A stretch of 31,137 bases of DNA from Deltaproteobacteria bacterium (GTDB lineage: Bacteria > Myxococcota_A > Polyangia > Palsa-1104 > JAEUJZ01): NCBI GenBank assembly GCA_017990795.1, contig JAGNNG010000001.1, positions 2,771 through 33,907 on the forward strand, written 5' to 3'. This document shows positions 2,408 to 21,851 of this stretch, piece by piece. How positions within the stretch are numbered: position 1 is the stretch's first letter; each line of letters opens with the position of its first letter. The position numbers were made by a program, and so were the translations under genes. The notes beneath the pieces were generated by a model. The model was not told the origin of the DNA. It did no database searches and saw only the letters and a list, made by a program, of their open reading frames with translations.

Positions 2408-3771
2408 AGCCGCAGATCTTGGTCGTAGATGATGACCGTGGCATGTGCGAGCTATTGGAACTCGGTCTGGCCCGGCGAGGCTTTCAGGTACGCTGGACAA
2501 CGGAGCCGCGCAAGGTCTTAGAGCTATTGCAGCAAGACTTTTATGAGGCAGTAGTCACGGATTTGAACATGCCAGGGCAAGACGGCATTGAGCTAACGCG
2601 TCAGCTCGTTGGCAACCGCTCTGACCTGCCGGTCATCGTCATCACCGCATTTGGCAGCATGGAGTCTGCGGTGGAAGCAATGCGCGCTGGTGCATACGAC
2701 TTTGTGACCAAGCCGCTGGAGGTTGATTCGCTAGCCCTTGTCCTGCAGCGTGCCGTCCAACATCGCGCCCTGAGAGAGGAGGTGAAGCTGCTTCGTCGCG
2801 CGGTTGCAGCATCGCACGGCGTCGACAACCTGATCGGCGAAAGTAGCGAGATGCGCAGGGTGTTTAACCTGCTCTCGCGTGTTGCGGAGGCCGATGTTTC
2901 AGTCCTCGTGCTGGGAGAGAGTGGTACTGGCAAAGAGCTGGTTGCCCGGGCAGTTCATACCCGCAGCCAACGCAAAGACGGTCCCTTTATAGCGGTTAAC
3001 TGCTCAGCGTTACCCGAAGCTCTGCTAGAGAGCGAGCTGTTTGGCCATACACGCGGCGCCTTTACGGATGCTCGCAGTCCACGCCGAGGACTTTTTCAGC
3101 AGGCCCATGGTGGCACTGTATTTCTCGACGAGATTGGCGATCTACCACTGGCGCTTCAGCCACGGCTTTTGCGCGCCCTGCAAGAGCGCAAAGTGCGACC
3201 GGTGGGCAGCGATACCGAAATCGACATCGATGTCCGCGTCCTTGCTGCCACCAATCAGGATCTAGAGAGCGCGGTCAGCGAGAAGCTGTTTCGCGGCGAC
3301 TTGTACTACCGACTGAATGTGGTTCAGGTGCGGCTACCGCCTCTGCGCGCGCGTGGAAACGATGTGCTGCTGCTTGCGCAGCACTTTTTGCGTCAGACGG
3401 CTGCGCGTCTCGACAAACACGTCGAGCGGATGAGTCCAAGCGTTGCAGAGCGACTGCTGGCCTATTCATGGCCGGGCAATGTGCGCGAGCTACAAAACTG
3501 CATCGAGCGCGCAGTGGCGTTGACCGCATACGACCAGCTTGGTGTAGATGATTTGCCCGAAAAGATTCGCGACTATCGCCCCTCCCAAGTCCTGCTGGCC
3601 AGCGACCATCCCAGCGAGCTTGTCACCATGGACGAGATCGAGCGCCGCTACATCCTGCGGGTACTTGATGTCGTGAGTGGCAACAAGTCACTGGCCGCGC
3701 AGATCCTGGGATTTGATCGCAGGACCTTGTATCGCAAGCTAGAGCGCTACGGCATCTCTACTCGACTGTGA
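2404..3771 (+). CDS. Sigma54-dependent response regulator RR1 (NtrC/AtoC family: REC-AAA+-Fis HTH)
   Basis: VDDD and TDLNMPG phospho-acceptor, Walker A GESGTGKE, GAFTDA loop, Walker B FLDEIG, RGDLYYRLNV, WPGNVRELQN, HTH DRRTLYRKL; ATGA overlap with HK1. Confidence 0.97.
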   Translation: MKPQILVVDDDRGMCELLELGLARRGFQVRWTTEPRKVLELLQQDFYEAVVTDLNMPGQDGIELTRQLVGNRSDLPVIVITAFGSMESAVEAMRAGAYDFVTKPLEVDSLALVLQRAVQHRALREEVKLLRRAVAASHGVDNLIGESSEMRRVFNLLSRVAEADVSVLVLGESGTGKELVARAVHTRSQRKDGPFIAVNCSALPEALLESELFGHTRGAFTDARSPRRGLFQQAHGGTVFLDEIGDLPLALQPRLLRALQERKVRPVGSDTEIDIDVRVLAATNQDLESAVSEKLFRGDLYYRLNVVQVRLPPLRARGNDVLLLAQHFLRQTAARLDKHVERMSPSVAERLLAYSWPGNVRELQNCIERAVALTAYDQLGVDDLPEKIRDYRPSQVLLASDHPSELVTMDEIERRYILRVLDVVSGNKSLAAQILGFDRRTLYRKLERYGISTRL

Positions 3772-3802
3772 CATTTTGCTACAAAGCGCCAAAATGTCAC
3801 AG
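3766..3802. promoter_or_regulatory. Perfect 13-bp inverted repeat (palindrome copy C); candidate activator binding site or bidirectional terminator
   Basis: CTGTGACATTTTG-ctacaaagcgc-CAAAATGTCACAG, overlapping the RR1 stop codon in a convergent gap. Confidence 0.6.
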
Positions 3803-3854
3803 CCAAGCTGGTGCTAACGATACGTCGCATTGGCAACGACAGGGCACCACCTGT

Positions 3855-5405
3855 CTAGTGTGGGTCAAGACTGAGCAGGCGCGCATCCACATCCACGAGC
3901 AGTTCCTCGCACACTTCTTGGCTTAGATACCCTTTGCGAAATGCAGCGAGAATGGCGTCTTTCTCGACGATAAGCATATGCCTGCGCGCGGCCAGCTGTT
4001 CCTCTGTGCGAAGCTCCTCCGCTTGTAGGTGCATGTCCGTAATACGCTGCTCTGCATCGGTAATGGCGCCTGAGTATTCATCGCGAACGCGCGCTACAGA
4101 TTCGGGGTGAACCGCTCCATCTTTGAGCAGCTGCTCTAGTGCTGAGACTGCAGCCGTCTTGGCTCGAATCATCCCCCGCTCGCGCTCGTAGTCCTTGCGG
4201 TCCGCGCGCAAGCCAATGAGCCCGAGTTTGCGCAGCAGCGGCCCCATGCTCAGTCCCTGCAGCAAGATTGAGATGAGAACGACCCCGAAGGTCATGGTGA
4301 CAAGCAGGTCGCGATGTGGAAAGTCTCGCGGCAGCGCCAGCACTAGCACCATCGATAGGCCGCCACGTAGACCGCCCCAGGTCAGCACCGCACTCCAGGA
4401 CCAAGGTAGCGTCTCGCGGGTTCGCCGAAGCAGCCAAGTTACGGCGTAGATCAGCGCAGCCCGTCCAAGAGTGACCGCCATGTACGCAACGAGGATCATC
4501 TTCCAAGACAGCAGTAGCGCGCTTAGGTGAACCTCAAAGCCGATGAGTAGAAAGACAATCGAGTTGAGGGCAAACGCCACGTACTCCCAAAACGACTCGA
4601 CGGCGATCCGGGTCGAGGGGCTCATACCAGTGCGCGCACCGTAGTTGCCGCAGAGCATTCCGGCGGCAACGGTTGCAATCACACCAGAGAGGTGAAAGTG
4701 CTCCGCAATAATAAAGCTGCCGTACGCGGCGATGGTGGTTAGCGTGATCTCGATCATGGGATCGTCCACGCGCTGCGTCAGCTTCGACGCTAGATAGCCG
4801 ACTAGAACGCCTACCAGCGTACCTAGTCCCACTACTCGTACAAAGTCCACCACTGCGCCACCAATCGACAGGGAGTCACCGGTGACAGCTCCCAAGATCA
4901 GCGTGAAGAAAACCACAGCGGTGCCATCATTTAGCAGGCTCTCTCCTTCGACCAATACGGCCAGACGCTTTGGCGCACCCAGGGTCTTAAAAAGCGCAAC
5001 CACTGCGATTGGGTCGGTAGCTGCAATCAGTGCTGCAAATACCAGCGCATGCTTCATCGTAAAGCCATCTACGAAATGAAGAGCGCTGGCAGCAGGCTGT
5101 AGTAGAACCGCCGTAATGCCAATGGCTGCGGCCACACCGGGAACTGCAAGTGCGTGAATCGCCAGCTTGTTCTGCCAAAACTTGTGAAAGTCCAGGTGAA
5201 ACGCAGCCTCGAAAACGAGCCCAGGAAGGAAGATTGCGTACAGCAGTTCCTTGGTCAAGTGTGGTGCGTTGATAACGCGCGTAGTCCCAAGCAGCAGTCC
5301 TGCTACCACCAGCGCTACAGTGTAGGGAATCTTGAGCCATCGCGCAGCCAGAGCGACGGCTGTAGCCACAGCAAACAGTGAAATGAAAACGGCTTCAAAG
5401 TGCAT
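3855..5405 (-). CDS. CPA1-family (NhaP-like) Na+(K+)/H+ antiporter
   Basis: About 12 TM segments, ATDPIAV, EGESLLNDG, GGLRGGLSMVLVLAL, helical cytoplasmic C-tail. Confidence 0.93.
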   Translation of the reverse strand: MHFEAVFISLFAVATAVALAARWLKIPYTVALVVAGLLLGTTRVINAPHLTKELLYAIFLPGLVFEAAFHLDFHKFWQNKLAIHALAVPGVAAAIGITAVLLQPAASALHFVDGFTMKHALVFAALIAATDPIAVVALFKTLGAPKRLAVLVEGESLLNDGTAVVFFTLILGAVTGDSLSIGGAVVDFVRVVGLGTLVGVLVGYLASKLTQRVDDPMIEITLTTIAAYGSFIIAEHFHLSGVIATVAAGMLCGNYGARTGMSPSTRIAVESFWEYVAFALNSIVFLLIGFEVHLSALLLSWKMILVAYMAVTLGRAALIYAVTWLLRRTRETLPWSWSAVLTWGGLRGGLSMVLVLALPRDFPHRDLLVTMTFGVVLISILLQGLSMGPLLRKLGLIGLRADRKDYERERGMIRAKTAAVSALEQLLKDGAVHPESVARVRDEYSGAITDAEQRITDMHLQAEELRTEEQLAARRHMLIVEKDAILAAFRKGYLSQEVCEELLVDVDARLLSLDPH

Positions 5406-5545
5406 GAGGGTCTTGCTTTGGAGTGAGAAGACTGCGATGGCGGAGAGTGGATGGTGTCAACGGCGTCCCGGCGTTGAGCTACTTGCGAGGAGAACGCACT
5501 TGGGGATGGATTGCAGCCAGAACGCCGCTGACTTACCGATCACAG

Positions 5546-5561
5546 AGCAGAAACTGTGCCA
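5546..5561 (-). promoter_or_regulatory. Sigma54 -24/-12 promoter for the CPA1 antiporter
   Basis: TGGCACAGTTTCTGCT on the minus strand (GG-N10-GC), about 140 nt upstream of ATG 5405. Confidence 0.75.
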
Positions 5562-5631
5562 TGGATACGGTGTTCTGTACATCCTAGCTCGGGAGGGCAA
5601 CTGGGTGGTGTGATGCTGTCCTTCTATGAGG

Positions 5632-5648
5632 GCCTGTCCGCGACAGGC
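5632..5648. other. GC-rich hairpin between the hypothetical gene and the antiporter promoter
   Basis: GCCTGTC-cgc-GACAGGC; no U-tract, function unknown. Confidence 0.3.
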
Positions 5649-5694
5649 ATGCACTCATCTTGCGCAACATCGGAGCCAACGACCACACCCAATA

Positions 5695-6252
5695 TCAGGT
5701 GATGGAAGCAGCGTCGCCGAAGATGCGGTCCATGAACTGCACGCTGGTACGCAAGGTTAGGTCGACGTGCGCTTCTCGGTCGCCGACGAGGATTCCAAAG
5801 CCGGGCGCGAAATGCAGCCGCCACCAGTTCAGCTCCGCCGCACCGTATAGCGACGGCTGCACGATGCCGCGCTTGAGGCGTCCGACGTGCTTGGGGTCGC
5901 CTTCAAAGTTGTCGAGTAGTAGCTGCGTCCGAACTTCGATGACGGAGGACCACCACGGGCGATGCTCGATGGAGTAGAACGCGGGCGACTGTGGCCCGGG
6001 GCGGAGGCGGAGGCGGGCGCGTAGTTCGAGCGGCCCGCCGACCAGATAGAAGTCTTCGCTCGGGCGGGTGGCCAGTCGGGTGGCTGCGCCTGGAATGTCT
6101 GTGTCAGCGCCGCTGCCGTGTCGGGGTTCTGGACTGCGGCAGAATCGCACTAGAAGCAGCGCAAAGTCATAGTCATAGTCGTGCTTGCGCAGGCGCCCGC
6201 AGTAGAACGTAAAGCGACAATCGGCCGCTGCAACGCAAGGACGGAAAGCCAC
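5695..6252 (-). CDS. Hypothetical protein, possibly an outer-membrane beta-strand fragment; true start uncertain
   Basis: The C-terminal ~100 aa look protein-like and amphipathic (YSIEHRPWWSSVIEVRTQLL...LHFAPGFGILVG...VDLTLRTSVQF). The N-terminal part looks non-coding and no clear RBS was found. Confidence 0.4.
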   Translation of the reverse strand: MAFRPCVAAADCRFTFYCGRLRKHDYDYDFALLLVRFCRSPEPRHGSGADTDIPGAATRLATRPSEDFYLVGGPLELRARLRLRPGPQSPAFYSIEHRPWWSSVIEVRTQLLLDNFEGDPKHVGRLKRGIVQPSLYGAAELNWWRLHFAPGFGILVGDREAHVDLTLRTSVQFMDRIFGDAASIT

Positions 6253-6340
6253 AGGCGCTTACGCGGGGCACCTTGCCCATTTTTCTGCCTACACCGTTTT
6301 CGCTTCGTTGGCGTCGCACTTACCTATACTTTGGGTAGTA

Positions 6341-7831
6341 ATGCTTGACCGGATTGTGATCGCTGGTGCGGGAAAGACGATGGAGTCGATCCTTGCGCGG
6401 CTGGTGCACCTGGCACCGCTCATCGTGCTAGATACCGCGCAGAGCGCGCTTGATGAGCTGCGCGTAGACACGGACCCATCGAACGCTGCAGAGGACGCGA
6501 GCCCGCCGCAGTCGGTCACGAAGCGCCTAGCCGATGCAACGTCGCGCTTCGTCCTGGAGGAGGCCCGTGGAGAATCGCATCTCTCCGTCGCTCTGGCGGC
6601 AGCAACGGGCGATGATCGTCGCAACATCGAGGTGTGCCGTCTGGCGCGCGAATTGGGCTTCTCGCCGGTCGTGGGCATCGTCATCGACCCATCGACCAGC
6701 CAAGACTATGTGGCACAGGGCGCGCGCGCCATCGTCCGTGCCCAGATTTTGGGCAGCGTGGTCGAGCAAGCGCTGCGCTACGACGGATTAGTCATCGCAT
6801 CAACCGTCGGCCAAGGGCGCGGCGAGATCATTGAGTTCGTGGTGTTACCAAGCTCGCCGGCAATTGGCGTGCCGCTGTCGCAGCTTCACGCCGAAGGCTG
6901 GCGCATCGCCGCAGTCTATCGCGGCACCGAGCTGGTAATCCCCATGGGAACCACCATGATTCGCGCCGAGGATCGCGTGCTGGTCATCGGTGACCCTGAG
7001 ATTTTGCCCAGCATCGCCGAGCAGCTGCGCATCGGAGTGCCGCAGTTTCCGCTGCGACATGGAAACAGCGTTGTCGCCTACTTACCAGCGGGGCGCATTG
7101 CCAACGTCGAAGAGGAAGCAGAGCTGCTGGCGCAAAAGACCCGCGCAACCGCGCTACGTCGGATCTATCCGGGTGCCAAGCCAAGCAAAGAGGCGCTGCT
7201 GCCTACGCCTGCCCCATCCGCACAAAGCCCGCGCCCAGCCGCCAAGCAGCGAGAGGACATGCTGCTTGCTGGTGACAACTTGCGCGCACACATCGAGCAG
7301 CTTCGCCAGCTGCGGCCCGGAGTTGTAATCGCTAGCCCGATGCGCCGATCGTGGGGACGACGCATGCTGGGGCGCAGCGGTAGTGCAGCGGAGCTATGTA
7401 CGGCGATGGACTGCCCGGTTCTGTTTGCGCGGGGCACTCCGCACCATGCGCGCGTGGTTCATGCCCTCATCGCCGGAATCGCCGACCTGGCATCTGCCGA
7501 TACCGCCATCGACTTGGCACGCATGCTGTCGCTACCGTTGGTGGTCGTTCGCGTTATTTTACCACCGTATGTACAGGCCCCGGACCAGCAGACTGAGCAG
7601 GTTGGTGATGAACTACAGCGACGCGCGCGGCTCTATGGCTTGCAGTTGGAATGGCTGCAGATTGAAGGGAATCCTGTCCGGGAACTGGTTCGCCTGGCCC
7701 AGCCCGATGATCTGCTGATCCTCTCCAGAAAGCCAACACGACGCGACAGCTTCACCTCGCCCGACGTAGCGATGCGAGTGGCCGAGTCGGCTCGTTGTTC
7801 CACGTTGATTCTGACGGTGCAGCGGCCGTGA
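6341..7831 (+). CDS. TrkA-like RCK_N + RCK_C protein fused to C-terminal universal-stress-protein (USP)-like domain(s)
   Basis: MLDRIVIAGAGKT Rossmann start (ATG 6341 preferred to track TTG 6308); RCK_C pattern SPAIGVPLSQL...IAAVYRG...IP...IRAEDRVLVIG; USP pattern EGNPVRELVRLAQPDDLLIL...DVAMRVAESARCSTLIL. Confidence 0.8.
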   Translation: MLDRIVIAGAGKTMESILARLVHLAPLIVLDTAQSALDELRVDTDPSNAAEDASPPQSVTKRLADATSRFVLEEARGESHLSVALAAATGDDRRNIEVCRLARELGFSPVVGIVIDPSTSQDYVAQGARAIVRAQILGSVVEQALRYDGLVIASTVGQGRGEIIEFVVLPSSPAIGVPLSQLHAEGWRIAAVYRGTELVIPMGTTMIRAEDRVLVIGDPEILPSIAEQLRIGVPQFPLRHGNSVVAYLPAGRIANVEEEAELLAQKTRATALRRIYPGAKPSKEALLPTPAPSAQSPRPAAKQREDMLLAGDNLRAHIEQLRQLRPGVVIASPMRRSWGRRMLGRSGSAAELCTAMDCPVLFARGTPHHARVVHALIAGIADLASADTAIDLARMLSLPLVVVRVILPPYVQAPDQQTEQVGDELQRRARLYGLQLEWLQIEGNPVRELVRLAQPDDLLILSRKPTRRDSFTSPDVAMRVAESARCSTLILTVQRP

Positions 7832-9054
7832 CGGGGCATGCAGACAATCTGTGGTGGACGCTACTGCTGCTGCTGGGCGCGAGCATTATCGGTCCGGTGC
7901 TGGCCGTTCGGCTGCGTGCCCCCTCGGCTGTGATGCTGATTTTGTTGGGCATCTTGCTTGGGCCGGCTGGCATCGGCGTTTTACAGGACAGCCCAACGGT
8001 CTCGTTCCTGTCTGAGTTTGGATTCTTGGTCCTGATGTTCATGGCCGGCATGGAGATCGACTTTGCCGCACTGCGCAGCGCTGGTCGCTCTGCGCTGCTG
8101 GTTCCACTACTAGTTGTCGTCGCTGTATTTGGCAGCGCGGTCGCGATGGGCAGGTTCTTCGCACTGGGCCGGATCGAAGTGTTGGCCCTCAGCGCAGTCA
8201 GCGTGGGCATGCCGCTGGCGATGCTAAAAGAGACCGCGCAAGATGCCACCCCCATCGGGCGTCACGTCATGCTAACGGCCTCACTGGGAGAGTTTGTCTG
8301 CATTTTGGTCATCACCGCGCTGGAACTGCTGGCAGGAGGAGGAGGAGTGCAGCACACCGCCCAGCGCATCGGGCAAGTTGTGCTGCTGCTGGGGGCATCG
8401 ACGCTGCTGATGCGCTGGGCACGTGCTCTGGTGTGGTGGCACCCCGAGCCGCTGCGCCGCCTGACCCATCACCACGACGTGGCCGAGCTGGGTGTCCGCG
8501 TCGGGCTGTGCATCATGCTGGCATTCGTCACGCTGTCCGCGCTGGCGGGCGTCGAGCCCATTCTTGGCGCTTTCATCGGCGGCGCGCTGGTCGGCTTTGT
8601 GTTGCGCCAAAAGCAGACGCTGGAAGGCAAGATCGCAGCCCTGGGAAATGGCCTCTTCATCCCGGTGTTTTTCATTGTGGTGGGCGTCCGCTTTGACGCC
8701 AGCGCACTCGATAGGTCGATGGTGCTGCGAGCGCTGCTCCTAGCCGCGCTGGCGGGAGTGGCCAAGCTTGCGCCCAGCCTGCTCTTGGCGCGCCGTGGCA
8801 CACCGCTGCGTGCTCGCTTGGCCGCGGGAACACTGCTGGCGGCACCGCTGACGTTAGTGGTGGCAGTTGCGGCGATCGGACGCCGACTGGAGCTGATCGA
8901 CTCGCGACAGCAGGCAGGCCTGGTGTTGGTGGCGATGCTCGTGTCGATTGTCTTCCCCGTGCTGTTCAAGCTGCTGGTGCGGGAAGTGCGCGACGAAGCA
9001 GCGACTAAGAGGGGGATTCAAAAGCCGTCTTCCGTTGAGAAACTCCACGGCTAG
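7828..9054 (+). CDS. CPA2-family cation:proton antiporter (membrane domain only)
   Basis: FLSEFGFLVLMFMAGMEIDF, LGAFIGG, FIPVFFIVVG; about 12 TM; GTGA overlap with the upstream stop gives start 7828. Confidence 0.9.
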   Translation: MTGHADNLWWTLLLLLGASIIGPVLAVRLRAPSAVMLILLGILLGPAGIGVLQDSPTVSFLSEFGFLVLMFMAGMEIDFAALRSAGRSALLVPLLVVVAVFGSAVAMGRFFALGRIEVLALSAVSVGMPLAMLKETAQDATPIGRHVMLTASLGEFVCILVITALELLAGGGGVQHTAQRIGQVVLLLGASTLLMRWARALVWWHPEPLRRLTHHHDVAELGVRVGLCIMLAFVTLSALAGVEPILGAFIGGALVGFVLRQKQTLEGKIAALGNGLFIPVFFIVVGVRFDASALDRSMVLRALLLAALAGVAKLAPSLLLARRGTPLRARLAAGTLLAAPLTLVVAVAAIGRRLELIDSRQQAGLVLVAMLVSIVFPVLFKLLVREVRDEAATKRGIQKPSSVEKLHG

Positions 9055-9065
9055 GGTCGCCCACA

Positions 9066-9102
9066 GAGTTTGTTCCAGAGGTGCTCTGCTCTAAACAAGC
9101 TC
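9066..9102. terminator. Compound hairpin in a convergent gap, possible bidirectional terminator
   Basis: GAGTTTGTT...AACAAGCTC outer stem (8/9) around CAGAG-gtg-CTCTG. Confidence 0.35.
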
Positions 9103-9129
9103 CTGGGAAAATGGGTCCGGGCTGTGACG

Positions 9130-9582
9130 CTAACTATCGATGATTTCGACCTGGTCCGTATCGCTTGCATCTTGGGTGATTGCCAACAGTCGTGTGATCA
9201 CCGGTTCAAATATGCTGCCAAGACTGGACATATCGGAGGGAACCCAAGGAAGCCGCAAGCGCGGTCCAATCAGTTCCGTTGATGAGCAAGGCGATGGCTC
9301 GCTGAGCAGGTTAAACAGGACCGTCTTGGTACGAAGGCTGAGGGCAAGCTGAGTGCCAGGTAGGTCGCACAGTGGCTTGGCTTGCTGCAGTTCACTGGCC
9401 AAGCCGCTGGCAGAGACGGTCACAGAGCGTCCTCCCAGCGCCTCGCCCACGCGATGCAGCTCGGTGAACACAGCGCCCTGCTGTTTTCCCTTCAAGTGAT
9501 GCTCGATGTTGTCGTAAAGCAGCGCGTACTGGATCCAGGGCAGTTCGCAGGATCCCGCAGGACCGATGAACGTAAGACTCAT
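9130..9582 (-). CDS. Hypothetical soluble protein (150 aa), last gene of the czcB-czcA-MFS run
   Basis: GGAGG RBS 8 nt before ATG 9582; protein-like composition (MSLTFIGPAGSCELPWIQYALLYDNIEHHL...); 37 bp downstream of the MFS stop. Confidence 0.75.
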   Translation of the reverse strand: MSLTFIGPAGSCELPWIQYALLYDNIEHHLKGKQQGAVFTELHRVGEALGGRSVTVSASGLASELQQAKPLCDLPGTQLALSLRTKTVLFNLLSEPSPCSSTELIGPRLRLPWVPSDMSSLGSIFEPVITRLLAITQDASDTDQVEIIDS

Positions 9583-9619
9583 GTGCATTCCCTCCGAGGG
9601 GTCACAAGTTGGGTGCAGG

Positions 9620-11089
9620 TCAAGGTGGGCCAGCGCGGTCAGGAAGGGGACCGGGCTCCGCCAGCGCCTCTAGTGAGCGACCTTCAGCGGCAACGCCCAG
9701 GAAGGCAGCAACAACCGCCGCCGCAATCATCAGCAAGCCGCCAATCAGATATCCGATGAGCACCTGGGTTTTACTGCCGGTTTGAATCATGGCGCCAAAC
9801 AGACCTGGAGCGACCAGGCCCCCAGCCGCTGTGCCCACGGCATAGAACAATGCAATGGCCATGCCGCGCAGCTCGACGGGAAATAGCTCGCTCACCGTCA
9901 AATAGGCAGAGCTAGCAGCGGCTGAGGCGATAAAAAAGACGACCGACCACAGCACTGTCTGGGTCACGGCGGTCAGCCAACCTTGTGCGAAACACCAGCC
10001 CGTCAGCATCAACAGCAGGCCTGCCGTGCCATAGGTCACCGTGATCATCACGCGCCGACCAATCGAATCGAACAGCCCTCCCAGTAGGAGTGGGCCCAGC
10101 AGATTCCCAGCGGCAAAGGGCAGCAGATACAGCCCAACTGAGTCGGCAGGCACACTGTAAAATCGCGCCAGCACCAGCGCATAGGTAAAGAAGATAGCGT
10201 TATAGGCAAACGCCTGCGCAATCATCAGTGACAGACCCAGGACCGAGCGCCGAAGATGGCAGACGAGCAGCGTGTGTCCGATGGCGGCAAAGCCAACCGT
10301 CCCCTTCACCGTCATCGACACCGCAGGCCCAGCTGGTGGCAGCGTCGCTCCGGTGCTGCGTTCGACATCCGCTTCGATAGCCGCAACGATGGCTTCCGCT
10401 TCCTGCACATGGCCATGCAGCAGCAGCCAGCGCGGACTTTCGGGCACATGGCGCCGTACCAGCACGACGGCACCACCCAGCAGCGCCCCCAGACCAAAGA
10501 CCAAGCGCCAGCCGATCGCGTGGGGTAGGTAGCGCGGGTCGAGCAAGATCAACGTCGCGCTGGCACCCAGGGCCGTGCCTAGCCAATAGGTGCTGTTGAT
10601 GGCCAGGTCGGCACGCCCACGCACGCGCGCAGGAAGCAGCTCGTCGATGGCGGAGTTGATGGCTGCATACTCGCCGCCAATACCCGCTCCGGTCAGCGCC
10701 CGACAGATCGCAAAAGAATAGAAGCCTACTGAGCACGCGGTCGCCATGGTGGCCAGCAGATACACCGCGAGCGTGATCAGAAACAGGCGCTTGCGACCCA
10801 GCTGGTCGGTCAGGCGGCCAAAGAACAGCGCACCCACGATTGCGCCAAACAGGTAGGCGCTCGCGGACAGACCGACCTCGGTTTCGGACAGATGCAGGGT
10901 ATCGGTTTCACCCAACACGCCAGCGACTGCGCCTACCACGGTGACCTCGAGCCCATCCAGGATCCAGGTCACGCCCAGCGCAATGACGACGCGCCAGTGC
11001 CAACCGGACCACGGCAGCCGGTCTAGCCGCGCCGGAATGTCAGTCTGGATTTGACTGCCGACCGCAAGCGCATCAGGCCGAGGCTTCAT
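9620..11089 (-). CDS. MFS transporter (12 TM, sugar-porter/SV2-like group), substrate unknown
   Basis: ARLDRLPW..WHWRV N-terminus, GRLTDQLGRKR motif A, GIGGEY, PESPRWL, GGLFDSIGRR, SELFP; AAGGAGGT RBS before ATG 11089, overlapping the czcA 3' end. Confidence 0.92.
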   Translation of the reverse strand: MKPRPDALAVGSQIQTDIPARLDRLPWSGWHWRVVIALGVTWILDGLEVTVVGAVAGVLGETDTLHLSETEVGLSASAYLFGAIVGALFFGRLTDQLGRKRLFLITLAVYLLATMATACSVGFYSFAICRALTGAGIGGEYAAINSAIDELLPARVRGRADLAINSTYWLGTALGASATLILLDPRYLPHAIGWRLVFGLGALLGGAVVLVRRHVPESPRWLLLHGHVQEAEAIVAAIEADVERSTGATLPPAGPAVSMTVKGTVGFAAIGHTLLVCHLRRSVLGLSLMIAQAFAYNAIFFTYALVLARFYSVPADSVGLYLLPFAAGNLLGPLLLGGLFDSIGRRVMITVTYGTAGLLLMLTGWCFAQGWLTAVTQTVLWSVVFFIASAAASSAYLTVSELFPVELRGMAIALFYAVGTAAGGLVAPGLFGAMIQTGSKTQVLIGYLIGGLLMIAAAVVAAFLGVAAEGRSLEALAEPGPLPDRAGPP

Positions 11090-14000
11090 CAAGCGACCTC
11101 CTTTCAGAAGCTGGCGCGTGCCGCATCACCCAGTGCAAGAGCAGCGGCAGAATGAGCAGCATCAGCACGGTAGAGGACACAATGCCGCCGATGACGACCG
11201 TGGCCAGTGGCCGCTGTACTTCTGCCCCAGCGCGCGTCGAGATGGCCATGGGAAGAAAGCCAATCGCTGCCACCAGCGCAGTCGTCACGACTGAACGCAG
11301 GCTGCTGCGAGCACTGCCAAGCAGCGCTTCGTTACCGCGTTCTCCATCGGCGAGCCGTCGGCGTAGTTCCGAGGTCATGACCACGCCATTTAGCACTGCT
11401 ACACCACACAGCGCGATGAAGCCCACCGCCGCAGGTATTGAAAATGGCAGTCCCCGCAGCTGAAGGGCGAGCACACCGCCGATGATGCCCAGGGGCACGC
11501 AGGCAAAGACGGCGCAAGCGTAGCGAGCGTCCCCAAACATCAGAAACAGCATCCCGAAGATGATGGCCAGCGCGATCGGCGCGACCAACATGAGGCGACT
11601 CTTGGCGCGACTGAAGTTTTCAAACTGCCCGCCCCACTCCAGGTGATAGCCGTGGGGAATCGCCACTTGCGCCTTTACGCGAGCACGGGCGTCTTGCACA
11701 TAGCTGACCAGATCACGTCCGCGGATGTTGGCTTCGACCAGCACGCGTCGCTCTAGTGCTTCCCGATTGATGACCGCAGGCCCCTCTGATTCGGTGACCT
11801 CCGCTACCTGCGCCAGCGGTACTAGCGCTCCGTCTTCCGTTCCGACCAGCAGCTCGCCAAAGGACTCGGGCGTCAGCTGGTTGGGCGACAGCAGCAACTT
11901 GATTGGGAAGCGTCGTGCTTGCTCAAAGACCTGGCCTGCCTGACGTCCGACGCGCGAAGCTTCGACGGTGTTTAGGATCTCATCTGCGGGAATGGCGTAT
12001 CTGGCCAACCGCTGTCGATCGACTTTGACGTTCAGTAGAGGTAGACCGAGCACGCGCTGGACGCGCAGATCACCAGTCCCAGGAACCCCACGCATCACAA
12101 GGCCGATGCGGTCAGCGATGCTCTTGCCCACTTGCAGATCGGGGCCGAACACTTTCACCACCACGTCGGCACGCGAGCCCGCCAGAAGCTGGTTCACGCG
12201 ATCTTCGATGGGCTGCGACACCGATACAAACGTCGCTGGCACTTCGGCTTCGATGGCCGCTTTGATCTTTTCACCCAAGCTGTCCAGGTCGTGGGCCGTG
12301 GTCCAGGTTCCTTTTTCGGCCAGCTTCACCATGACCTCGGCTTCATCCGGGCCCACCGGGTCAGTGGCTACTTCGGCGCGCCCGGTCCGAGTGACGATGG
12401 ACCGCACTTCAGGAAAGCGACCCAGCACGTCTTCCACCAGTCCGCCCAGCCGCTGCGCTTCGCTGATCGAGATCGACGGCAGGCGCTTGATGTCCAGCGA
12501 TAGCTCGCCCTCGTCCAAGCGCGGCACAAACTCTGCGCCCAGCGTGGTTGCAGATACCGCCGTCAGCGCGCACAGCCCAAGCGTCACGCCCGCGATCTGG
12601 CGAGGATGCGACAGCGCCCATTGCAGGCGCCTACTGTACATTGCCTGCAGCCGCGCCCAGATCCCCAGGTGCGCATGACCCGCCTGCGCATCGTGACCGT
12701 GCGACGCCGCTGCGGTCTGCACGGAGGCGGTTAAAACCGACGCCGCCAGCGCCGGAAACACAGTCAGAGAAAACAGCAGCGCACCGGCTAACGCCAGCGC
12801 CACGGTAATCGCCATGGGCTTAAACATGCGGCCTTCAACGCCCTCTAGCGCCATCAGCGGTAGGTAGACCAGCAGGATGATGGCCACGGCGAATGCAACG
12901 GCGCGTGCGTTGGCACCCATCGAGCGGGCGATAACAGACGGCACATCAGCACGCTGCATCGGGCCTGCGCTAGCCAGTGCGACCATCGCCCCCTCAAGCA
13001 TGACGATGGCCCCATCGACCAACAGCCCAAAGTCGATGGCGCCCAAGGACATCAAGTTGCCGATGACGCCCATGCGCACCATGCCAATGACCGCCACGCC
13101 CATCGCGAGCGGAATGCCCAGCGCCACGATAATGCTGCCGCGCAGGGTGCCCAGCGTTGCGAACAGCACCAAGATAACCAGCAGCGCCCCTTCCGTCAGG
13201 TTCACCAGCACGGTCTTGAGCATGCGATTAATGAACTCGGCGCGGTCGTAGTAGCTCACGATCTTTACGCCGGGTGGCAGGTCGCGCTGAATCTCGGTCA
13301 GCTTGGCCTTGACGTTCTCCACGACCTCGCGTGAGTTCTGCCCTATGAGCATCATCACGGTGCCAGCCACGATCTCGCCTTTACCGTGCTTTGTGACCAC
13401 GCCGAAGCGCAAGGCGGGGCCGAACTGCACTTTCGCCAGCTGCTTTAGCAGGACCGGAGTGCCGGTTTCATCCGTTGTGATGACAGTGCTAGCGATGTCG
13501 CGCAGATCGCGGTACTGCGCTTCGCCGCGAATCACGAGCGACTCGGCATTTTTTTCGATGTAGCCACCACCGATGTTGCCGTTGTTGCGACGCAGGACGT
13601 CGTAGATCTTGCCCAGCGTTAGCCGATAGGCCGCCAGCCGCTTGGGATTGACCACGACTTGATACTCCTTCGCTTCACCACCCATGGCGTTTACTTCGAT
13701 GACGCCGGGAACCGAGCGCAAGCGGCGCGCAACTTCCCAATCCAGCAGCGTGCGCAGCTCCATCGGCCCCTGCGCACCGTCGCTCGACTCCAAGTAGAAC
13801 TCATAGATCTCCCCAAGCCCGGTGGATGCCGGAGCGAGCTCGGGATGTCCGTACTGCGGATTGATGTCTGCCTCTGCCTGCTTCAGCCGCTCGTTGACAA
13901 GTTGACGACAGAACCAGACATCCATGTCGTCTTGAAAGATGATGGTTACAGCCGAAACGGCGGTGCGGCTGATGCTGCGAATCTCGCTGACGCCTGGCAG

Positions 14001-14228: not shown

Positions 14229-15401
14229 TCACCTCAGCAGCTCGCTTTTGAGTAGGAATCCCCCATCCACCACCACCAGCTCCCCTTCACTGACGCCACT
14301 TCTGACTTCGATCAGAGACCCACCCGAGGGCCCTAGCTCGACGGAGCGACGCTCGAAGCGGCCACTGCCGGTCTGGACAAAGAGCAGCGGCTTGCCTTCC
14401 ACTGTGACCACCGCCTTTCTTGGGACTGTCAGTACGGCCGTTTGCGCCACCGTCGCTTCGCCTTGCAGCGTTGCGGTCACGAACTGTCCTGGCCGCAGCA
14501 GTCCTTCACTGTTGTCGAACTCAACGCGGACTGGCGCGGTGCGCGTCTTTTCATCGATGACGCTACCAATCAGTGCTACCTGCGCCGGAAATGTGCGGCC
14601 CGGATACGCTTCCGTACGGATCTCGGCGCGCTGCGCGCTGTGCACATGAGGCAGGTCTTTTTCGAACAGATCCAGCAGAACCCAGAGTCGGCTCAGATCC
14701 GCGACCTGAAACGCATCGCTGGCGGACTGCACGGCTTGTCCCAGCGATACCTCGCGGCGGATAACGGTTCCATCAATGGGCGCCAACAGCGACACGCGAC
14801 CCGCACGAGCATCGCGGATCTGGCTGATGTCGCTCTGGCGCAAGCCCAGTGCACGCAGCCGTTGCATCGCCGCAGCTAGCTCGGCCTGCTGGGTAATTGC
14901 TGCGGCTTCAGCCAGCTCACGCTCGCGTTCCGAGCTGACCTTGCGCTCGGCCAGTTCACGCTCGCGGCGCAAGTTGGCCTCTGCCGCAAAGGAGGACGCG
15001 CGCGCAGTCAAATAGGCGGCTTGGGCCTGACCGACTTCTGCGCTCTCTAGCTCTGCCATGGTCTGACCCGCTTTGACCTTGTCTCCCACTCGCACCTGGA
15101 TCGAAACCAAACGGCCCGCGATTAGGGGGCCAACGGCAGCAAAGTGATCGGCGGCGAATCCAACCGAGCCGACGACTTCGACATCGCGCGCCAGGCGAGT
15201 GCGCACAACCGCGACCACTCTCACTGGACTGTGCTTCGTTGCTTCAGCGGGCAATGCCAGCGGTCCGATGCGGGCCGCTTCTACGCCTTCGCTGTGGTGC
15301 TCAGGGGATTGCTTCACACTCAGTCGGCCCAGCAGCAAAGCCGCAGCCCCAACGATGACGACAGGCAGTCCACGCCGAATCCTGTCCTTAAATGCTGCCA
15401 T
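14229..15401 (-). CDS. czcB: RND periplasmic adaptor, CzcB/CusB family
   Basis: N-terminal anchor, VRVGDKVKAGQ lipoyl motif, alpha-hairpin, APIDGTVI, ADLSRLWV, LRPGQFV; GAGGAGGAG RBS. Confidence 0.93.
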   Translation of the reverse strand: MAAFKDRIRRGLPVVIVGAAALLLGRLSVKQSPEHHSEGVEAARIGPLALPAEATKHSPVRVVAVVRTRLARDVEVVGSVGFAADHFAAVGPLIAGRLVSIQVRVGDKVKAGQTMAELESAEVGQAQAAYLTARASSFAAEANLRRERELAERKVSSERERELAEAAAITQQAELAAAMQRLRALGLRQSDISQIRDARAGRVSLLAPIDGTVIRREVSLGQAVQSASDAFQVADLSRLWVLLDLFEKDLPHVHSAQRAEIRTEAYPGRTFPAQVALIGSVIDEKTRTAPVRVEFDNSEGLLRPGQFVTATLQGEATVAQTAVLTVPRKAVVTVEGKPLLFVQTGSGRFERRSVELGPSGGSLIEVRSGVSEGELVVVDGGFLLKSELLR

Positions 15402-15457
15402 CGCTCCTCCTCGCTTTCGCTGTGGGCGAACTGCGTTGTGCAGGTCATCCAGGTGTC

Positions 15458-15473
15458 AGGTGCAGTCTTTGCA
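15458..15473 (+). promoter_or_regulatory. Candidate sigma54 promoter for czcC, sharing the TTGCAA -12 box with the czcB promoter
   Basis: AGGTGCAGTCTTTGCA; GG-N10-GC spacing and perfect TTGCA, but a non-consensus -24 box. Confidence 0.45.
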
Positions 15474-15485
15474 AGTGCCTTGCCA
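15470..15485 (-). promoter_or_regulatory. Sigma54 promoter for czcB-czcA-MFS-hyp
   Basis: TGGCAAGGCACTTGCA on the minus strand; canonical GG-N10-GC. Confidence 0.75.
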
Positions 15486-15507: not shown

Positions 15508-16899
15508 ATGCCAACGAGAACAGAACAAACGAATCCCTGGCTCCGTCCTCGCTGTCGAGCAAGGGCGACGTTGCAGCGCCGCGCATCCAGCTTGCTTGCG
15601 CTGATATGCATGACGTGGTTTGCCAGCGGAGGTCATGCAGCTGCCGATTCAGCGACCGCGCTGTCCCTAAGTCTGGCGGACGCACTGCAGCGTGCCGCAC
15701 ACAACGCGCCGGAGCTGGTGCGGGCACAAAACGAGCTACGCAACGCCGAGGCCCGTCGCGTGGGCGCTGGCCTGTGGCTATCGACAAACCCTCTGGTGTC
15801 TTTCCTTATCGGCTCTCGCACCGAACAGCAGAGCGTGGGTCCTGCGCTACGCGGCATCCAACATCAGCTGCATGTTGAGCAGGCTCTCGAAGTAGCTGGC
15901 CAGCGTTGGGCGCGGCTAGATGTGGTGGACGCAGCAGTTGCGGCGCAGCAAGACGCGGTGGCGTATGCGCAGCTGGTGGCACGCTCGCTGATCAAAGCTC
16001 TGTACGTTCAGTGTCTCCTGGTCGAACGACGCTTGGCGGTGGCGCAGAAGCGTGAAGATGTTGCACGCCAGCTGCTGGCATCGGCAGAGACGCGGCTGCA
16101 GCTCGGCGCAACTGGTGCTATCGAAGCAAACCTGGCGCGTATTGAAGTAGGCCGCGTGGTCAGCGACCGTGCCGACATCGCGACCGAGCGCGAGCTTCGC
16201 TTAAGTGAGCTGCGCATCGCAACGGGCATCTCGCCTGCCGTAACGATTACGCTAACGACGCCGACCATGATTGACACCCTCCCTAGAGTCACGCTGGATG
16301 GCGAGGTACATCAGCAGATCGAGCAGGCACTGTCGCGCCGCCTGGATCTTCACGCGATCCAAAAGCAGCGGGTGCAGATCCAAAGCGACGCTCGCCGATT
16401 GCGGCGCGAAGTGGTGCCCAATCCGATTGTGGCCTTCGACTATCAGCAGGATCTGGCTGGGCAGATCTTTATTGGTGGAACCCTCGGGCTGACGATACCG
16501 ATATTCCAGCGCAACCAAGGGCCGCTGGCGCAGCTTCTGGCAGCAGAGCGAGCCCGCCAAGCCGAAGAGAGACTGCTGGTCACTCGCGTTCGTTCCGAGG
16601 TCGCGCAGGCGCTACAAACGCTGCGGATTCGTCGAACGCAGCTAGAGTCGTTCGCGCGCGATGCACTGCCGCCAGCGGAGGCGAACATCGAGCTGCTGCA
16701 CCGCGGGTGGCAAGCGGGCAAGTTTGATCTGTTTCGCGTTATCACGGCGCTGCGCGAGGCGACCGAGCTAAGGCTTCGCTATCTCACGATGCTGGAACAG
16801 ATGTGGATCGCAGGCATTGCGCTAGAACGCGCAAGCGGGGTCGATGTGCTAGCGGTCGAGCAGACCCACGATGCGCATGACGGTGGCACGCAGCGCTAG
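15508..16899 (+). CDS. czcC: TolC/CzcC-family outer-membrane efflux protein, divergent from czcBA
   Basis: AAGGAG RBS 5 nt before ATG 15508 (the track ORF's 103-aa extension lies antisense to czcB and across the intergenic gap); signal-peptide-like N-terminus; PNPIVAF, IPIFQRNQG, GKFDLFRVI. Confidence 0.9.
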   Translation: MPTRTEQTNPWLRPRCRARATLQRRASSLLALICMTWFASGGHAAADSATALSLSLADALQRAAHNAPELVRAQNELRNAEARRVGAGLWLSTNPLVSFLIGSRTEQQSVGPALRGIQHQLHVEQALEVAGQRWARLDVVDAAVAAQQDAVAYAQLVARSLIKALYVQCLLVERRLAVAQKREDVARQLLASAETRLQLGATGAIEANLARIEVGRVVSDRADIATERELRLSELRIATGISPAVTITLTTPTMIDTLPRVTLDGEVHQQIEQALSRRLDLHAIQKQRVQIQSDARRLRREVVPNPIVAFDYQQDLAGQIFIGGTLGLTIPIFQRNQGPLAQLLAAERARQAEERLLVTRVRSEVAQALQTLRIRRTQLESFARDALPPAEANIELLHRGWQAGKFDLFRVITALREATELRLRYLTMLEQMWIAGIALERASGVDVLAVEQTHDAHDGGTQR

Positions 16900-16931: not shown

Positions 16932-16974
16932 TGCATTTATGCCCCACATGGACAAAAGTGCTGATCAAAAGTGC
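16932..16974. repeat. Palindrome copy A plus a tandem extra half-site
   Basis: TGCATTTATGCCCCACATGGACAAAAGTGCT (16932-16962) is 26/31 identical to the reverse complement of 21821-21851; CAAAAGTGC occurs twice (16953, 16966). Confidence 0.75.
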
Positions 16975-16988
16975 CAGGTGCGGCGCGG

Positions 16989-18755: not shown

Positions 18756-18787
18756 AGCGTCCTCGATTTCTGCGTTCGATCTGCAGG

Positions 18788-18803
18788 TGGCGTCCTTCTT
18801 GCT
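18788..18803 (+). promoter_or_regulatory. Sigma54 promoter for otsA-otsB
   Basis: TGGCGTCCTTCTTGCT, GG-N10-GC, about 70 nt before ATG 18873. Confidence 0.7.
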
Positions 18804-18872
18804 TCGTTCGCCATGGCTGCAGTGCTGCAGACTGCGGTGAAGTGACCACGCGAACTATGCAAGGAGGATTCC

Positions 18873-21068
18873 ATGCCGCGATCCCTGCGCTTTGTGATCG
18901 TGCTCCTGCTGGGGTTGTCGGCCTTGTCGACAGCCGCCGTGCTAAGCGTCCACAGTCAGTTACGAGCCTGGTTTGCGCAGGATCTGAGTCTACGCGCTCG
19001 TCTCGCGATGAGCGGTGCCAAGCGGCCCCTGGTCGATCACTGGAACCAGCCGACCGTTCTAACTGAGCTACTGACTGAGCTGGCCCACGATGAGCGACTG
19101 CTGGCCGCCGCCGCCTGCTCTCCCACCGGCCAGCCGTTTGCGCGCTCCGACAGCTTTCCGGCGAGCCTGGGCTGCGATGCGACAGAGACCCGCTTGGCGC
19201 GCGTCGGGCAGAGCGAGCTGCACATCAGCAACTTTCCAATCTTTAGCGGCTCGACCGCACTGGGGACGGTGACCCTGGTTCACGACTTGCGCTATGTCGA
19301 AGACCGTATCCTCAGTGCACGGCACTTCCTGCTGCTGGCGTTCGGCGTGCTGTCGCTGATAGCAGCCCTCTTTACGATCTTGGTAGGCCGCATAGTCTGG
19401 CGCGAATGGAGCGAAGAGCTGCGTCAGGCGCTGCACGGCGTCCGAGCAAGGAAAGAGTTCCAACCGCTGATGCGCGAAGTGCGAGATTTGGTTGAGCGCA
19501 TCAACACAGAGCGCCAGAGCGATGCGCAGGAAGGCGAGTGGACGCCGGAGCGGCTGCGCACCATTCTGACGCGTCACCTTCACGGCGAAAAGATCGTCAT
19601 CCTCGCCAACCGCGAGCCCTACATTCACCAGAAGAACGCCGCGGGAGAGCTCTCAGTCCTGCATCCCGCCAGCGGTCTGGTAACGGCGCTGGAACCTGTG
19701 ATGCGCGCCTGCTCCGGCGTCTGGGTTGGACATGGCAGCGGCAATGCCGATCGCGATACCGTCGATGCGCACGACCGTGTGTCTGTGCCCCCAGGGGAAG
19801 ACTCCTACATCATTCGTCGCGTATGGCTGACACCCGAGGAAGAGCAGGGTTACTACTACCACTTTGCAAACGAAGGACTGTGGCCGCTGTGTCACATCGC
19901 GCATACACGCCCGCGCTTCGGTGCTGAGGACTTTGAGCACTACCGCCGCGTCAACCAGAAGTTCGCGGACGCGGTGTGTAGTGAGGTCGATCGCGACGAC
20001 CCCATCATCTTGGTGCAGGACTATCACTTCGCGCTGGCACCGCGCATGATCCGCAACCGCCTGCCGCGCGCCACCATCCTGACCTTTTGGCATATCCCGT
20101 GGCCCAACGCGGAGCGCTTCGGCATCTGTCCGTTTTACGCCGAGCTGCTAGACGGGCTTTTAGGAAGCAGCATCGTTGGATTTCACACGCAGCTACACTG
20201 CAACAACTTCATCGACAGCGTGGACCGCTTCTTGGAATCTCGTATCGATCGTCCCGCGCAGGCCATTGTGCAGGGGGGAATGCGAACGCTGGTGCGCCCC
20301 TATCCGATCTCGATCGAGTGGCCCGTGCACTGGCTCAAAGACATTGATTCTGTGGCTATCTGTCGTCGGTCGGTGATGCAAGAGCACGGCCTGCGGCCCG
20401 ATGCACTCATCGGTGTAGGCGTTGATCGCATCGACTACACCAAAGGCATCGAGGAGCGCCTGCTTGCGGTCGAGCGCCTGCTGGAAATCGCTCCTGAGCT
20501 GCTCGGTCGCTTTGTGTTCATCCAGATTGGCGCGCCCAGCCGTACTGCCATTGAGCGCTACCAGCAGCTTAACGACAGCGTGGTGGACCTAGTGGCGCGC
20601 ATCAACCATCGCTTTGGCACAGAAGACGGCTACCGTCCGATCGTGTTGGTTCGTTCCCACCAGGAGCCACCGACGATCTTTCGCTATCTGCGCGCGGCTG
20701 ATCTTTGCTACGTCAGCAGTCTTCACGATGGCATGAACTTGGTGGCAAAGGAGTTTGTCGCAGCCCGCGATGACGAGCGCGGCGTGCTCGTGCTTAGCCA
20801 CTTTACTGGGGCAGCCAGCGAGCTCACGGAGGCCCTAATCGTCAATCCCTATGACCTAGAAGAGTCGAGCGCTGCGCTGCAGGCGGCTCTGCGCATGACG
20901 GCTGCCGAGCAGCAAGCGCGCATGCGTGCCATGCGAACGCTGGTGGCAGAGTTTAACGTCTACCGCTGGGCTGGCCGCATGCTGGCAGATGCCGCAACCG
21001 TCCGGCGGCAAGCGCGATTTCAGGGCATGCTCGTCCCATCTCCTCGGCTGCGCCGAGACAGACAATGA
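18873..21068 (+). CDS. otsA: Trehalose-6-phosphate synthase (GT20) with an N-terminal 2-TM/periplasmic extension
   Basis: [49 protein letters not shown]; the first ~180 aa contain two hydrophobic helices flanking a ~120-aa loop; AAGGAGG RBS. Confidence 0.93.
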
Positions 21069-21799
21069 AGCGCCTGCTCACGATGGCGGGCCGCTTGGCG
21101 CTGCACAACCACGTGCGTCTAGGCGCACTGCTCGCTTTTGATTTTGATGGAACGCTGGCGCCCATCTGCGCAGACCCGAACACGGTGCAACTGCCCCTGA
21201 CCACCCATGCCCTGCTGCGCAGTGTTGCGTCTCGGTTCCCATGTGTTGTGATCTCGGGTCGCGCGCGCAAAGACGTTCGTGGGCGCGTGGCTGACATCCC
21301 GCTGCTCGAGGTGTTTGGCAACCATGGCGTCGAGCCGTGGTATGCGTCCCAGAGCCACATCGACTGCGTTTCGCGCTGGCGAGAGATCTTGGCGCGCAAC
21401 CTGGCCGCGATATCCGGCGTACACATTGAAGACAAAGTGTACTCGCTTAGCGTCCACTACCGTCACGCTGCAGAGCAACATCGCACGCATCGCGCTATCC
21501 TGGAAGCGCTAGCGACCCTACAAGGGGCGCGTGTCGTGCCGGGCAAGAAGGTATGCAACGTGATGCCCGCGCATGCGGTGCATAAAGGCACTGCGCTTAT
21601 CGCGGCGATGGGTCGCTTTGAGTGTGAGCGCGCGCTCTTTGTCGGAGACGATCACACCGATGAGGATGTATTCGCCTCCTGCAACCCGCGCCAGGTGTTT
21701 GGAGTACGGGTTGGTTTCAGCCGATCATCGCAGGCCGGATACTACCTAAGTCGTCAGGGCGAAATTGATGCTCTGCTGGCAGCGGTGCTGCGTTCCTAA
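21065..21799 (+). CDS. otsB: Trehalose-6-phosphate phosphatase (HAD IIB)
   Basis: FDFDGTLAPI, ISGR, GNHG.E, HKGTAL, FVGDDHTDEDVF; ATGA overlap with otsA. Confidence 0.93.
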   Translation: MKRLLTMAGRLALHNHVRLGALLAFDFDGTLAPICADPNTVQLPLTTHALLRSVASRFPCVVISGRARKDVRGRVADIPLLEVFGNHGVEPWYASQSHIDCVSRWREILARNLAAISGVHIEDKVYSLSVHYRHAAEQHRTHRAILEALATLQGARVVPGKKVCNVMPAHAVHKGTALIAAMGRFECERALFVGDDHTDEDVFASCNPRQVFGVRVGFSRSSQAGYYLSRQGEIDALLAAVLRS

Positions 21800-21805
21800 C
21801 CGCTG

Positions 21806-21820
21806 CCGCCAGCTTGGCGG
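21806..21820. terminator. Short GC hairpin after otsB
   Basis: CCGCCA-gct-TGGCGG; no U-tract. Confidence 0.3.
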
Positions 21821-21851
21821 AGCAATTCTGCCCATGTGTGGCAAAAATGCA
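21821..21851. repeat. Palindrome copy B
   Basis: Minus strand TGCATTTTTGCCACACATGGGCAGAATTGCT; 26/31 identical to copy A and 19/31 to copy C (3769-3799), with the same TTTTG-N11-CAAAA geometry. Confidence 0.75.

Follow-up and report, generated by a model that had tools for sequence, protein, structure and literature searches.

The stretch of DNA analysed here (31,137 nucleotides of contig JAGNNG010000001.1; "the window" denotes this stretch at its full length) comes from an uncultured member of the Polyangia (Myxococcota) that is represented by a metagenome-assembled genome, 60% complete, with an assembly of 2.67 Mb in 529 contigs. The window carries three copies of a 31-bp palindrome, denoted PAL A, PAL B and PAL C, each located between two converging genes, and encodes two paralogous activators of sigma54-dependent transcription, RR1 and RR2. 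Comparison with related genomes makes it highly probable that the palindromes are the binding sites of RR1 and RR2. In the relatives, such sites are found next to sigma54 promoters, but here they occupy gene ends 1.5-3 kb away from the promoters, which makes them credible natural long-range enhancers in a bacterium; to the proposition that the remote copies indeed activate promoters over this distance, we give an even chance.

Three palindromes in convergent gaps

PAL A (positions 3769..3799) begins with the stop codon of RR1, which makes up its bases 1-3, and the stop codon of the Na+/H+ antiporter gene that converges on RR1 is 55 bp away. PAL B (16932..16962) lies in the convergent gap between czcC and the GH15 gene, with the czcC stop 33 bp before it and the GH15 stop 26 bp beyond, and PAL C (21821..21851) lies in the gap between otsB and RR2, with the respective stops 22 bp before and 20 bp beyond. 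The initial annotation of this DNA had placed the three copies at these coordinates and in convergent gaps at gene ends, and the stop-codon distances bear it out. PAL A, which belongs to the RR1-type variant, has perfect 10-bp arms, TGACATTTTG and CAAAATGTCA, around an N11 spacer; PAL B and PAL C are less symmetric, each matching its own reverse complement at 18 of the 31 positions. PAL B agrees with the reverse complement of PAL C at 26/31 positions and with PAL C read directly at 19/31, and PAL A agrees with PAL B at 17/31, with the reverse complement of PAL B at 14/31, and with the reverse complement of PAL C at 19/31. Thus, the value of 19/31 originally given for B and C holds, whereas the 26/31 attributed to A and B belongs to B and the reverse complement of C. 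Similarly, the geometry TTTTG-N11-CAAAA, which had been ascribed to all three copies, is exact in PAL A, but one base off in PAL B (TTATG) and in PAL C (TTCTG).

When at most one mismatch is allowed, this pattern has precisely three matches in the window, where 0.44 would be expected, and none of 100 dinucleotide shuffles reaches three, so that chance occurrence is ruled out. A dispersed repeat of the repetitive extragenic palindrome (REP) or miniature inverted-repeat transposable element (MITE) kind is ruled out as well, given that the 2.67-Mb assembly contains three copies, all within 18 kb, and that the relatives contain 1-5 each. A scan of the assembly with a half-site position weight matrix (PWM) assigns the three copies scores of 28.6-30.2, with the runner-up at 19.1; because the matrix was trained on these same copies, the scan shows only that a fourth good copy is absent. 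Within the 31 kb of the window, the half-site PWM yields nothing beyond the three copies even at a very low threshold and with the arm spacing varied by 2 bp, in line with the original remark that the sigma54 promoters have no good copy beside them.

The consensus of the element is approximately WGCAWTTTTGCC-N7-GGCAAAAWTGCW, with a variant TGACATTTTGC-N9-GCAAAATGTCA. Dyad symmetry is apparent across eight sites, each half having invariant G, TT, T and G positions. It is the sequence of the arms that is conserved, not merely their pairing, and within a single copy the two arms are often imperfectly matched.

Some further features are found within or next to the palindromes. The 10-mer GCCAAGCTGG follows two bases past PAL A (3802..3811, plus strand) and equally past PAL C (21809..21818, minus strand), in both cases on the flank distal to the RR gene, and is kept in relatives of the RR1 lineage. 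Since the same 10-mer constitutes the central spacer of a palindrome on contig C10 of the relative G001 (genomes of relatives are designated by G codes and their loci by L codes), it may be a remnant of an adjacent second site. The PAL A region (3768-3800) also fits a sigma70-type pattern in both directions (GTGACA-16-CAAAAT, 9/12), probably as a by-product of its symmetry. Finally, a weak sigma54-like match, TGGCAACGACAGGGCA (3831-3846, plus strand, 8/12), is found at a distance of 47 bp from the PAL A centre, a spacing like that between the palindrome and the hyp152 promoter in G007 and G010; aimed antisense into the 3' end of the antiporter gene, it may be a relic or serve as a promoter of antisense RNA.

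Promoter-proximal copies in related genomes

The comparison covered 22 other genomes of the same family and 19 genomes from two sister families; these genomes are related and, hence, not independent. The DNA and pattern searches of the 22 family genomes recovered 1-5 copies per carrier genome, compared to 0-1 for a reversed control pattern. The copies often share one contig, with five of them located within 13 kb in G010. In the 19 genomes of the sister families, there are no matches at up to two mismatches, and none to the control pattern either. All 13 family genomes that have a close RR match (E <= 1e-48) carry at least one copy, whereas seven of the nine genomes that lack such a match also lack the palindrome, and the other two have 3-mismatch matches only. 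Moreover, the two forms of the element are distributed accordingly: the WGCAWTTTTGCC-N7-GGCAAAAWTGCW form accompanies RR2-type loci, and the TGACATTTTGC-N9-GCAAAATGTCA variant is found at the 3' end of RR1 orthologues. Judging from these searches, the palindrome is limited to this family of Polyangia, where it tracks close orthologues of RR1 and RR2. The scan of the genome and relatives, proposed as a check in the initial annotation, gave three copies in the assembly, a few in each carrier relative and an RR-linked distribution.

Roughly 12 of the 20 copies in relatives have an outward-pointing sigma54 match (at least 9/12) at 48-176 bp, whereas the chance rate for such a neighbour is about 13%, a rough estimate from the density of matches in the window. 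The genes that these proximal promoters would drive are orthologues of genes in the window. Expressed as the position of the sigma54 box relative to the centre of the palindrome, the offsets are +48 for hyp152 (G007 and G010), -121 for otsA (G010, measured to the -24 box), -70 for orf341 (G001), and +82 (G009 and G021) or +176 (G001) for orf167-hyp212-CitMHS; in G001, a single copy is flanked by boxes at +59 and -93, which belong to HK2-RR2 and a divergent gene. Such spacing to predicted promoters is what is normally seen for the sites of enhancer-binding proteins. The locus L114 (contig C137 of G010) also contains fragments of the antiporter gene (76-92% identity) at 6244-6726 and 12676-13419, with a palindrome beside each.

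Sigma54 promoters of the window

When considering the possibility that the palindromes of the window serve the same kind of promoters from afar, an obvious question is whether these promoters are there and whether anything closer could serve them. The -24/-12 boxes were called by a simple 12-position consensus scan. The best match (11/12; 15470..15485, minus strand) precedes czcB-czcA-MFS-hyp152 and is conserved in G007; the box of otsA-otsB (18788..18803, plus strand) matches at 8/12 and aligns with promoters in L017 and L018; that of orf167-hyp212-CitMHS (24407..24422, plus strand) matches at 10/12; and the antiporter has a box at 5546..5561 and an alternative one at 5663..5678 (minus strand, 9/12 each). 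From palindrome centre to box, PAL A is 1.78 kb from 5561 and 1.89 kb from 5678; PAL B is 1.46 kb from 15485, with czcC in between, and 1.84 kb from 18788; PAL C is 3.05 kb from 18788 and 2.57 kb from 24407, with HK2-RR2 in between.

Evidence of transcription comes from unstranded metatranscriptome contigs of four runs. The contigs that cover czcB extend to 15349-15441 and so stop a little way inside the predicted start; an otsA contig begins at 18827; an antiporter contig reaches 5622, and the depth is zero at 5648-6313 in four of four runs, both of which fit the alternative box at 5663..5678. The ends of the RNA contigs agree with the predicted sigma54 starts.

Within 300 bp upstream of the czcB, otsA, antiporter and orf167 boxes of the window, no palindrome is found even at a very low PWM threshold, and the alignment of the window with G007 shows conservation of the czcB promoter itself but of no alternative proximal site in front of it. 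Since czcC probably starts at 15508, the divergent czcB/czcC gap has no room for a proximal activator site. In this gap, the czcB box (15485-15470, minus strand) and a weaker match in front of czcC (15458-15473, plus strand, 8/12) share a palindromic TTGCAA as their -12 box, and both the czcB box and TTGCAA are kept in G007. In the 117-bp divergent gap between the GH15 gene and otsA, two RNA contigs from different runs have their ends: the one from the otsA side begins at 18827, and the one from the GH15 side extends to 18837. These ends fit crossing transcripts from the otsA box at 18788 (plus strand) and a possible GH15 box at 18873 (minus strand), the latter overlapping the start codon of otsA. 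A search for a conserved partner facing the otsA promoter gave a negative result, as the position of the minus-strand box is not kept in L017 and L018.

Orphan sites and orphan promoters

The placement at gene ends is not peculiar to the window. A copy follows czcC not only here (PAL B) but also in G007 (L014:142-172), where it is located 42 bp past the stop codon and 1.44 kb from the conserved czcB promoter. After otsB, the element is found as PAL C in the window, in G013 (L015:2605), again facing RR2, and in G010 (L114:14445), facing a different gene. Copies follow CitMHS in G009 and G021, and the PAL A-type variant follows RR1 in at least seven relatives. In the aligned gene-end gaps, the palindrome is the sole conserved island: PAL C, for instance, matches its G013 orthologue at 26/31 positions, and the flanks have largely diverged. 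Conversely, even a very low PWM threshold brings up no palindrome within 300 bp of the orthologous promoters of orf167 in G013 and of hyp152-czcCBA in G009, and an orthologous promoter in G007 likewise lacks a proximal copy. Gene-end sites devoid of a promoter and promoters devoid of a proximal site can thus be viewed as orphan sites and orphan promoters, 1.5-3 kb apart.

In the RR1-type relatives, RR1 faces a small convergent gene under sigma54 control; the palindrome lies between the two, 264-316 bp from the promoter of the small gene (L018:9438-9600 and L017:9432-9640, minus strand; L127:1290-1481, plus strand). Its product, with a signal peptide and a Lys/Glu-rich tail of 35-45 residues, is predicted to be a secreted peptide. 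Because this promoter is aimed at the palindrome, the site there can act on it from downstream only. No counterpart of the small Lys/Glu-rich peptide gene was found in this assembly, and it is the antiporter gene that abuts PAL A instead.

The activators RR1 and RR2

RR1 (2404..3771, plus strand) is, by its Pfam matches, a sigma54 activator of the NtrC family with a receiver domain, an AAA+ domain and a Fis-type helix-turn-helix (HTH), and RR2 (21871..23298, minus strand) is its paralogue. The two proteins are 70% identical and share an identical Fis-type recognition helix, DRRTLYRKLERYG; both match Sigma54_activat (PF00158) at E 1e-70 and HTH_8 at E 1e-12. Each is encoded together with a histidine kinase partner, HK1 (1316..2407, plus strand) and HK2 (23229..24347, minus strand), respectively. 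Both proteins have a GAFTDA loop in place of the canonical GAFTGA, a variant that is given as compatible with activation (PMC4641369). The sigma factor itself is encoded in the assembly: a 514-aa open frame on contig C457 matches rpoN (PF04552, 208.7 bits). RR1 and RR2 score below every NCBIfam equivalog cut-off, the best being AtoC with 462 bits against the 714 required, and among solved structures, ZraR and generic NtrC-family proteins come closest to them. Our literature search produced nothing relevant on a Myxococcota activator with this site. According to Pfam, no other protein of the window has a recognisable DNA-binding domain.

How the remote sites might work

The initial annotation had taken the palindromes for sites of RR1 and RR2, and the comparative evidence (proximal copies in relatives, co-occurrence with the RR genes, and a conserved island in otherwise diverged gaps) strongly supports this assignment. 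The 31-bp palindrome would then be an enhancer, or upstream activating sequence (UAS), bound by dimers of RR1 and RR2. Upon phosphorylation by HK1 and HK2, the bound proteins would oligomerise, and the oligomers would contact sigma54-RNA polymerase, held in closed complexes on the -24/-12 promoters of the operons for ion transport, metal efflux and trehalose. As the sites are located in convergent gaps 1.5-3 kb away and not at -70 to -190, this contact would need a long DNA loop. Such a loop could reach the promoter from upstream, across the divergent gene, as envisaged for PAL B and the czcB promoter and for PAL C and the orf167 promoter; alternatively, it could come from downstream, beyond the end of the operon, as envisaged for PAL A and the antiporter promoter and for PAL C and the otsA promoter. 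The likely regulon of this uncharacterised activator pair, that of a two-component system for salt, osmotic or ion stress, includes the Na+/H+ antiporter, the RND metal efflux system, trehalose synthesis, the module of the CitMHS-type permease and the OmpA-like protein.

A more general arrangement can be envisaged tentatively, with promoters in the divergent gaps and enhancers in the convergent ones, such that each single site might act over 1.5-3 kb on the promoter nodes to its left and to its right: PAL B would serve the czcB/czcC and GH15/otsA nodes, and PAL C the GH15/otsA and HK2/orf167 nodes. A reason for such a two-sided layout might be that the divergent gaps, tiny as they are and taken up by crowded or interdigitated promoters, could not accommodate proximal sites as well. 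At present, this arrangement appears doubtful to us.

Remote action as such is made plausible by the conserved placement at gene ends, the lack of proximal copies, the hairpin and terminator-pattern evidence against terminators, and published precedents. Several considerations weigh against it. One dimer site is usually insufficient to nucleate an activator hexamer. The promoter counts for the relatives come from a simple consensus scan of related, non-independent genomes, and several of the sigma54 matches score just 8-9/12. The otsAB operon of G010 has both a proximal copy (-121) and a 3' copy, and the latter may therefore have a function of its own. Lastly, other activators, which are numerous in Myxococcota, could act on these promoters via sites that escape recognition.

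Alternative explanations

The serious rival accepts that the palindromes are true RR1/RR2 sites and holds that they no longer drive the distant promoters, having been inherited from an ancestral order of HK-RR, palindrome, sigma54 promoter and target. Under this scenario, which we deem rather unlikely, the sites would have taken on new roles, such as a roadblock or boundary between convergent units, downstream autoregulation of HK-RR, or an activator reservoir, or else would be plainly decaying. In G007, the order is still RR2, palindrome, sigma54 promoter, hyp152, and G010 has the same unit of palindrome, promoter and hyp152, which suggests an ancestral module; the weak match at 3831-3846 (8/12), at +47 of PAL A, could be a relic of it. 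The proximal copy that G010 otsAB keeps along with the 3' one fits this scenario too, and so does the distance of just 264-316 bp between the palindrome and the small-gene promoter in the RR1 relatives, considering that the small gene is missing in the window. Relics, however, should decay, whereas the arms of PAL A are perfect, PAL C still matches its G013 orthologue at 26/31 positions amid diverged flanks, and PAL B is kept across genera. Nor would inheritance readily account for placement at the ends of four different genes in several genera, or for sigma54 promoters in the window that have no other copy of the site. The palindrome might also be bound by a different DNA-binding protein linked to these loci, given that several neighbours (hyp152, orf167 and hyp212) belong to no known family. 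This we consider improbable because the presence of the palindrome tracks the RR orthologues, with one variant for each of the RR1 and RR2 lineages, its distance from sigma54 promoters is what one expects of an activator site, and RR1 and RR2 are the only window proteins with a recognisable DNA-binding domain.

Palindromes between converging genes also call to mind bidirectional intrinsic terminators or hairpins at RNA 3' ends. All three copies are in convergent gaps, PAL A folds well as RNA (z-scores of -3.2 and -5.7) and PAL C moderately (-1.8 and -3.3), and there is a minimum of RNA depth around PAL B. Yet it is PAL B that folds no better than shuffled sequences (+0.2 and +0.4). Furthermore, the stems are A+T-rich in a genome of 62% G+C, a T-run is absent, and a terminator scan of all three gaps came out empty; the arms are conserved in sequence and not in pairing, and the same element is found upstream of promoters in relatives. 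RNA contigs span all three copies, which is weak evidence since the contigs are unstranded. Altogether, a terminator function appears very unlikely. A further possibility is that a mobile trehalose cassette is bounded by PAL B and PAL C, acting as its terminal inverted repeats or as sites of recombination: the two flank GH15-otsA-otsB in inverted orientation, with 26/31 identity between B and the reverse complement of C. However, no recombinase or transposase domain is encoded among the window genes, the otsAB of G010 has copies at -121 and after otsB in the absence of GH15, and the relatives have copies also after czcC, CitMHS and RR1 and before hyp152 and orf341, PAL B being kept after czcC in G007. 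We regard a mobile cassette as extremely improbable.

Gene content of the window

The gene labels used here were obtained with BLAST, tblastn and Pfam; a gene caller based on the G+C content of third codon positions (GC3) was set aside as it missed many window genes and its labels were unreliable. The window opens with genes for an outer-membrane factor, HK1 and RR1 (plus strand), followed by PAL A, the Na+/H+ antiporter (minus), and a TrkA/Usp protein and a second exchanger (plus). Next come hyp152, MFS, czcA and czcB (minus), czcC (plus), PAL B, the GH15 gene (minus), and otsA and otsB (plus); these are followed by PAL C, RR2 and HK2 (minus), orf167, hyp212 and the CitMHS permease (plus), a ClC channel (minus) and the OmpA-like orf341 (plus). 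A profile search of the window proteins assigned hyp152, orf167 and hyp212 to no known family. The DNA of the window is present in sequencing runs from wastewater and activated sludge.

The bin at 8978-9643, which covers hyp152 (9130-9588), shows the top RNA depth of the stretch, 20-28, in all four runs, and the orthologue of hyp152 has its own sigma54 promoter in G007, G010 and G009. The open reading frame at 5695-6252 (185 aa, no Pfam match) has zero RNA depth in four of four runs and may be either a non-gene or a silent gene.

Comparison with known systems

Sigma54 activators are the textbook bacterial case of enhancer-like action at a distance. To our knowledge, however, natural activator sites more than 1 kb from the promoter are known for very few loci, namely, rocG with RocR, and SoxR. 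The sequence of the palindrome is not known to match any NtrC, ZraR, GlrR or AtoC site. In other respects, the resemblance to the UAS of the NtrC family is close: the palindrome is a dyad site that, in relatives, is 48-176 bp from a -24/-12 box, and it is found next to genes for a receiver-AAA+-Fis-HTH regulator and its kinase, with G001 showing an autoregulation layout in front of HK2-RR2. It differs from these UAS in being usually single rather than tandem, and the copies of the window are never promoter-proximal. With Rho-independent bidirectional terminators, the palindrome shares the position between converging genes but not the structure, having A+T-rich arms, no U-tract, no stable hairpin in PAL B, and conservation at the level of sequence.

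The 31-bp palindrome offers a defined probe for testing long-range looping, and the gene-end layout, a natural system for the study of sigma54 enhancers that work over kilobases; the occurrence of the same site next to promoters in some genera and, beside orthologous genes, at gene ends 1.5-3 kb off in others provides natural "moved enhancer" comparisons. The two-sided layout, if true, would amount to a conserved multi-enhancer architecture with kilobase-range looping in a bacterium. In Desulfovibrio vulgaris, by comparison, most sigma54 promoters have their nearest activator site no more than 100 nt away, and few are separated from it by over 300 bp (PMC4641369). The closest precedents are rocG of Bacillus subtilis, with a RocR site 1.5 kb downstream that is shared with rocABC and partly active at 15 kb (PMC4941409), and the SoxR site of B. 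thuringiensis, at least 1.7 kb from the promoter; relocated NtrC sites are known as well (PMC4941409). The likeness is that of a natural sigma54 activator site located past a coding end and at least 1.5 kb from the promoter, which can be common to two units, being downstream for one and upstream for the other (PMC4941409). In the window, the only recognisable sites are likewise remote, 1.46-3.05 kb from the promoters and beyond coding regions. For rocG and SoxR, the action was shown by deletion and relocation experiments, whereas here we infer the role of the palindrome. The systems also differ in phylum, activator family and site sequence, and what distinguishes the present one is the presence of three sites within 18 kb, all in convergent gaps, in a layout that is kept between genera.

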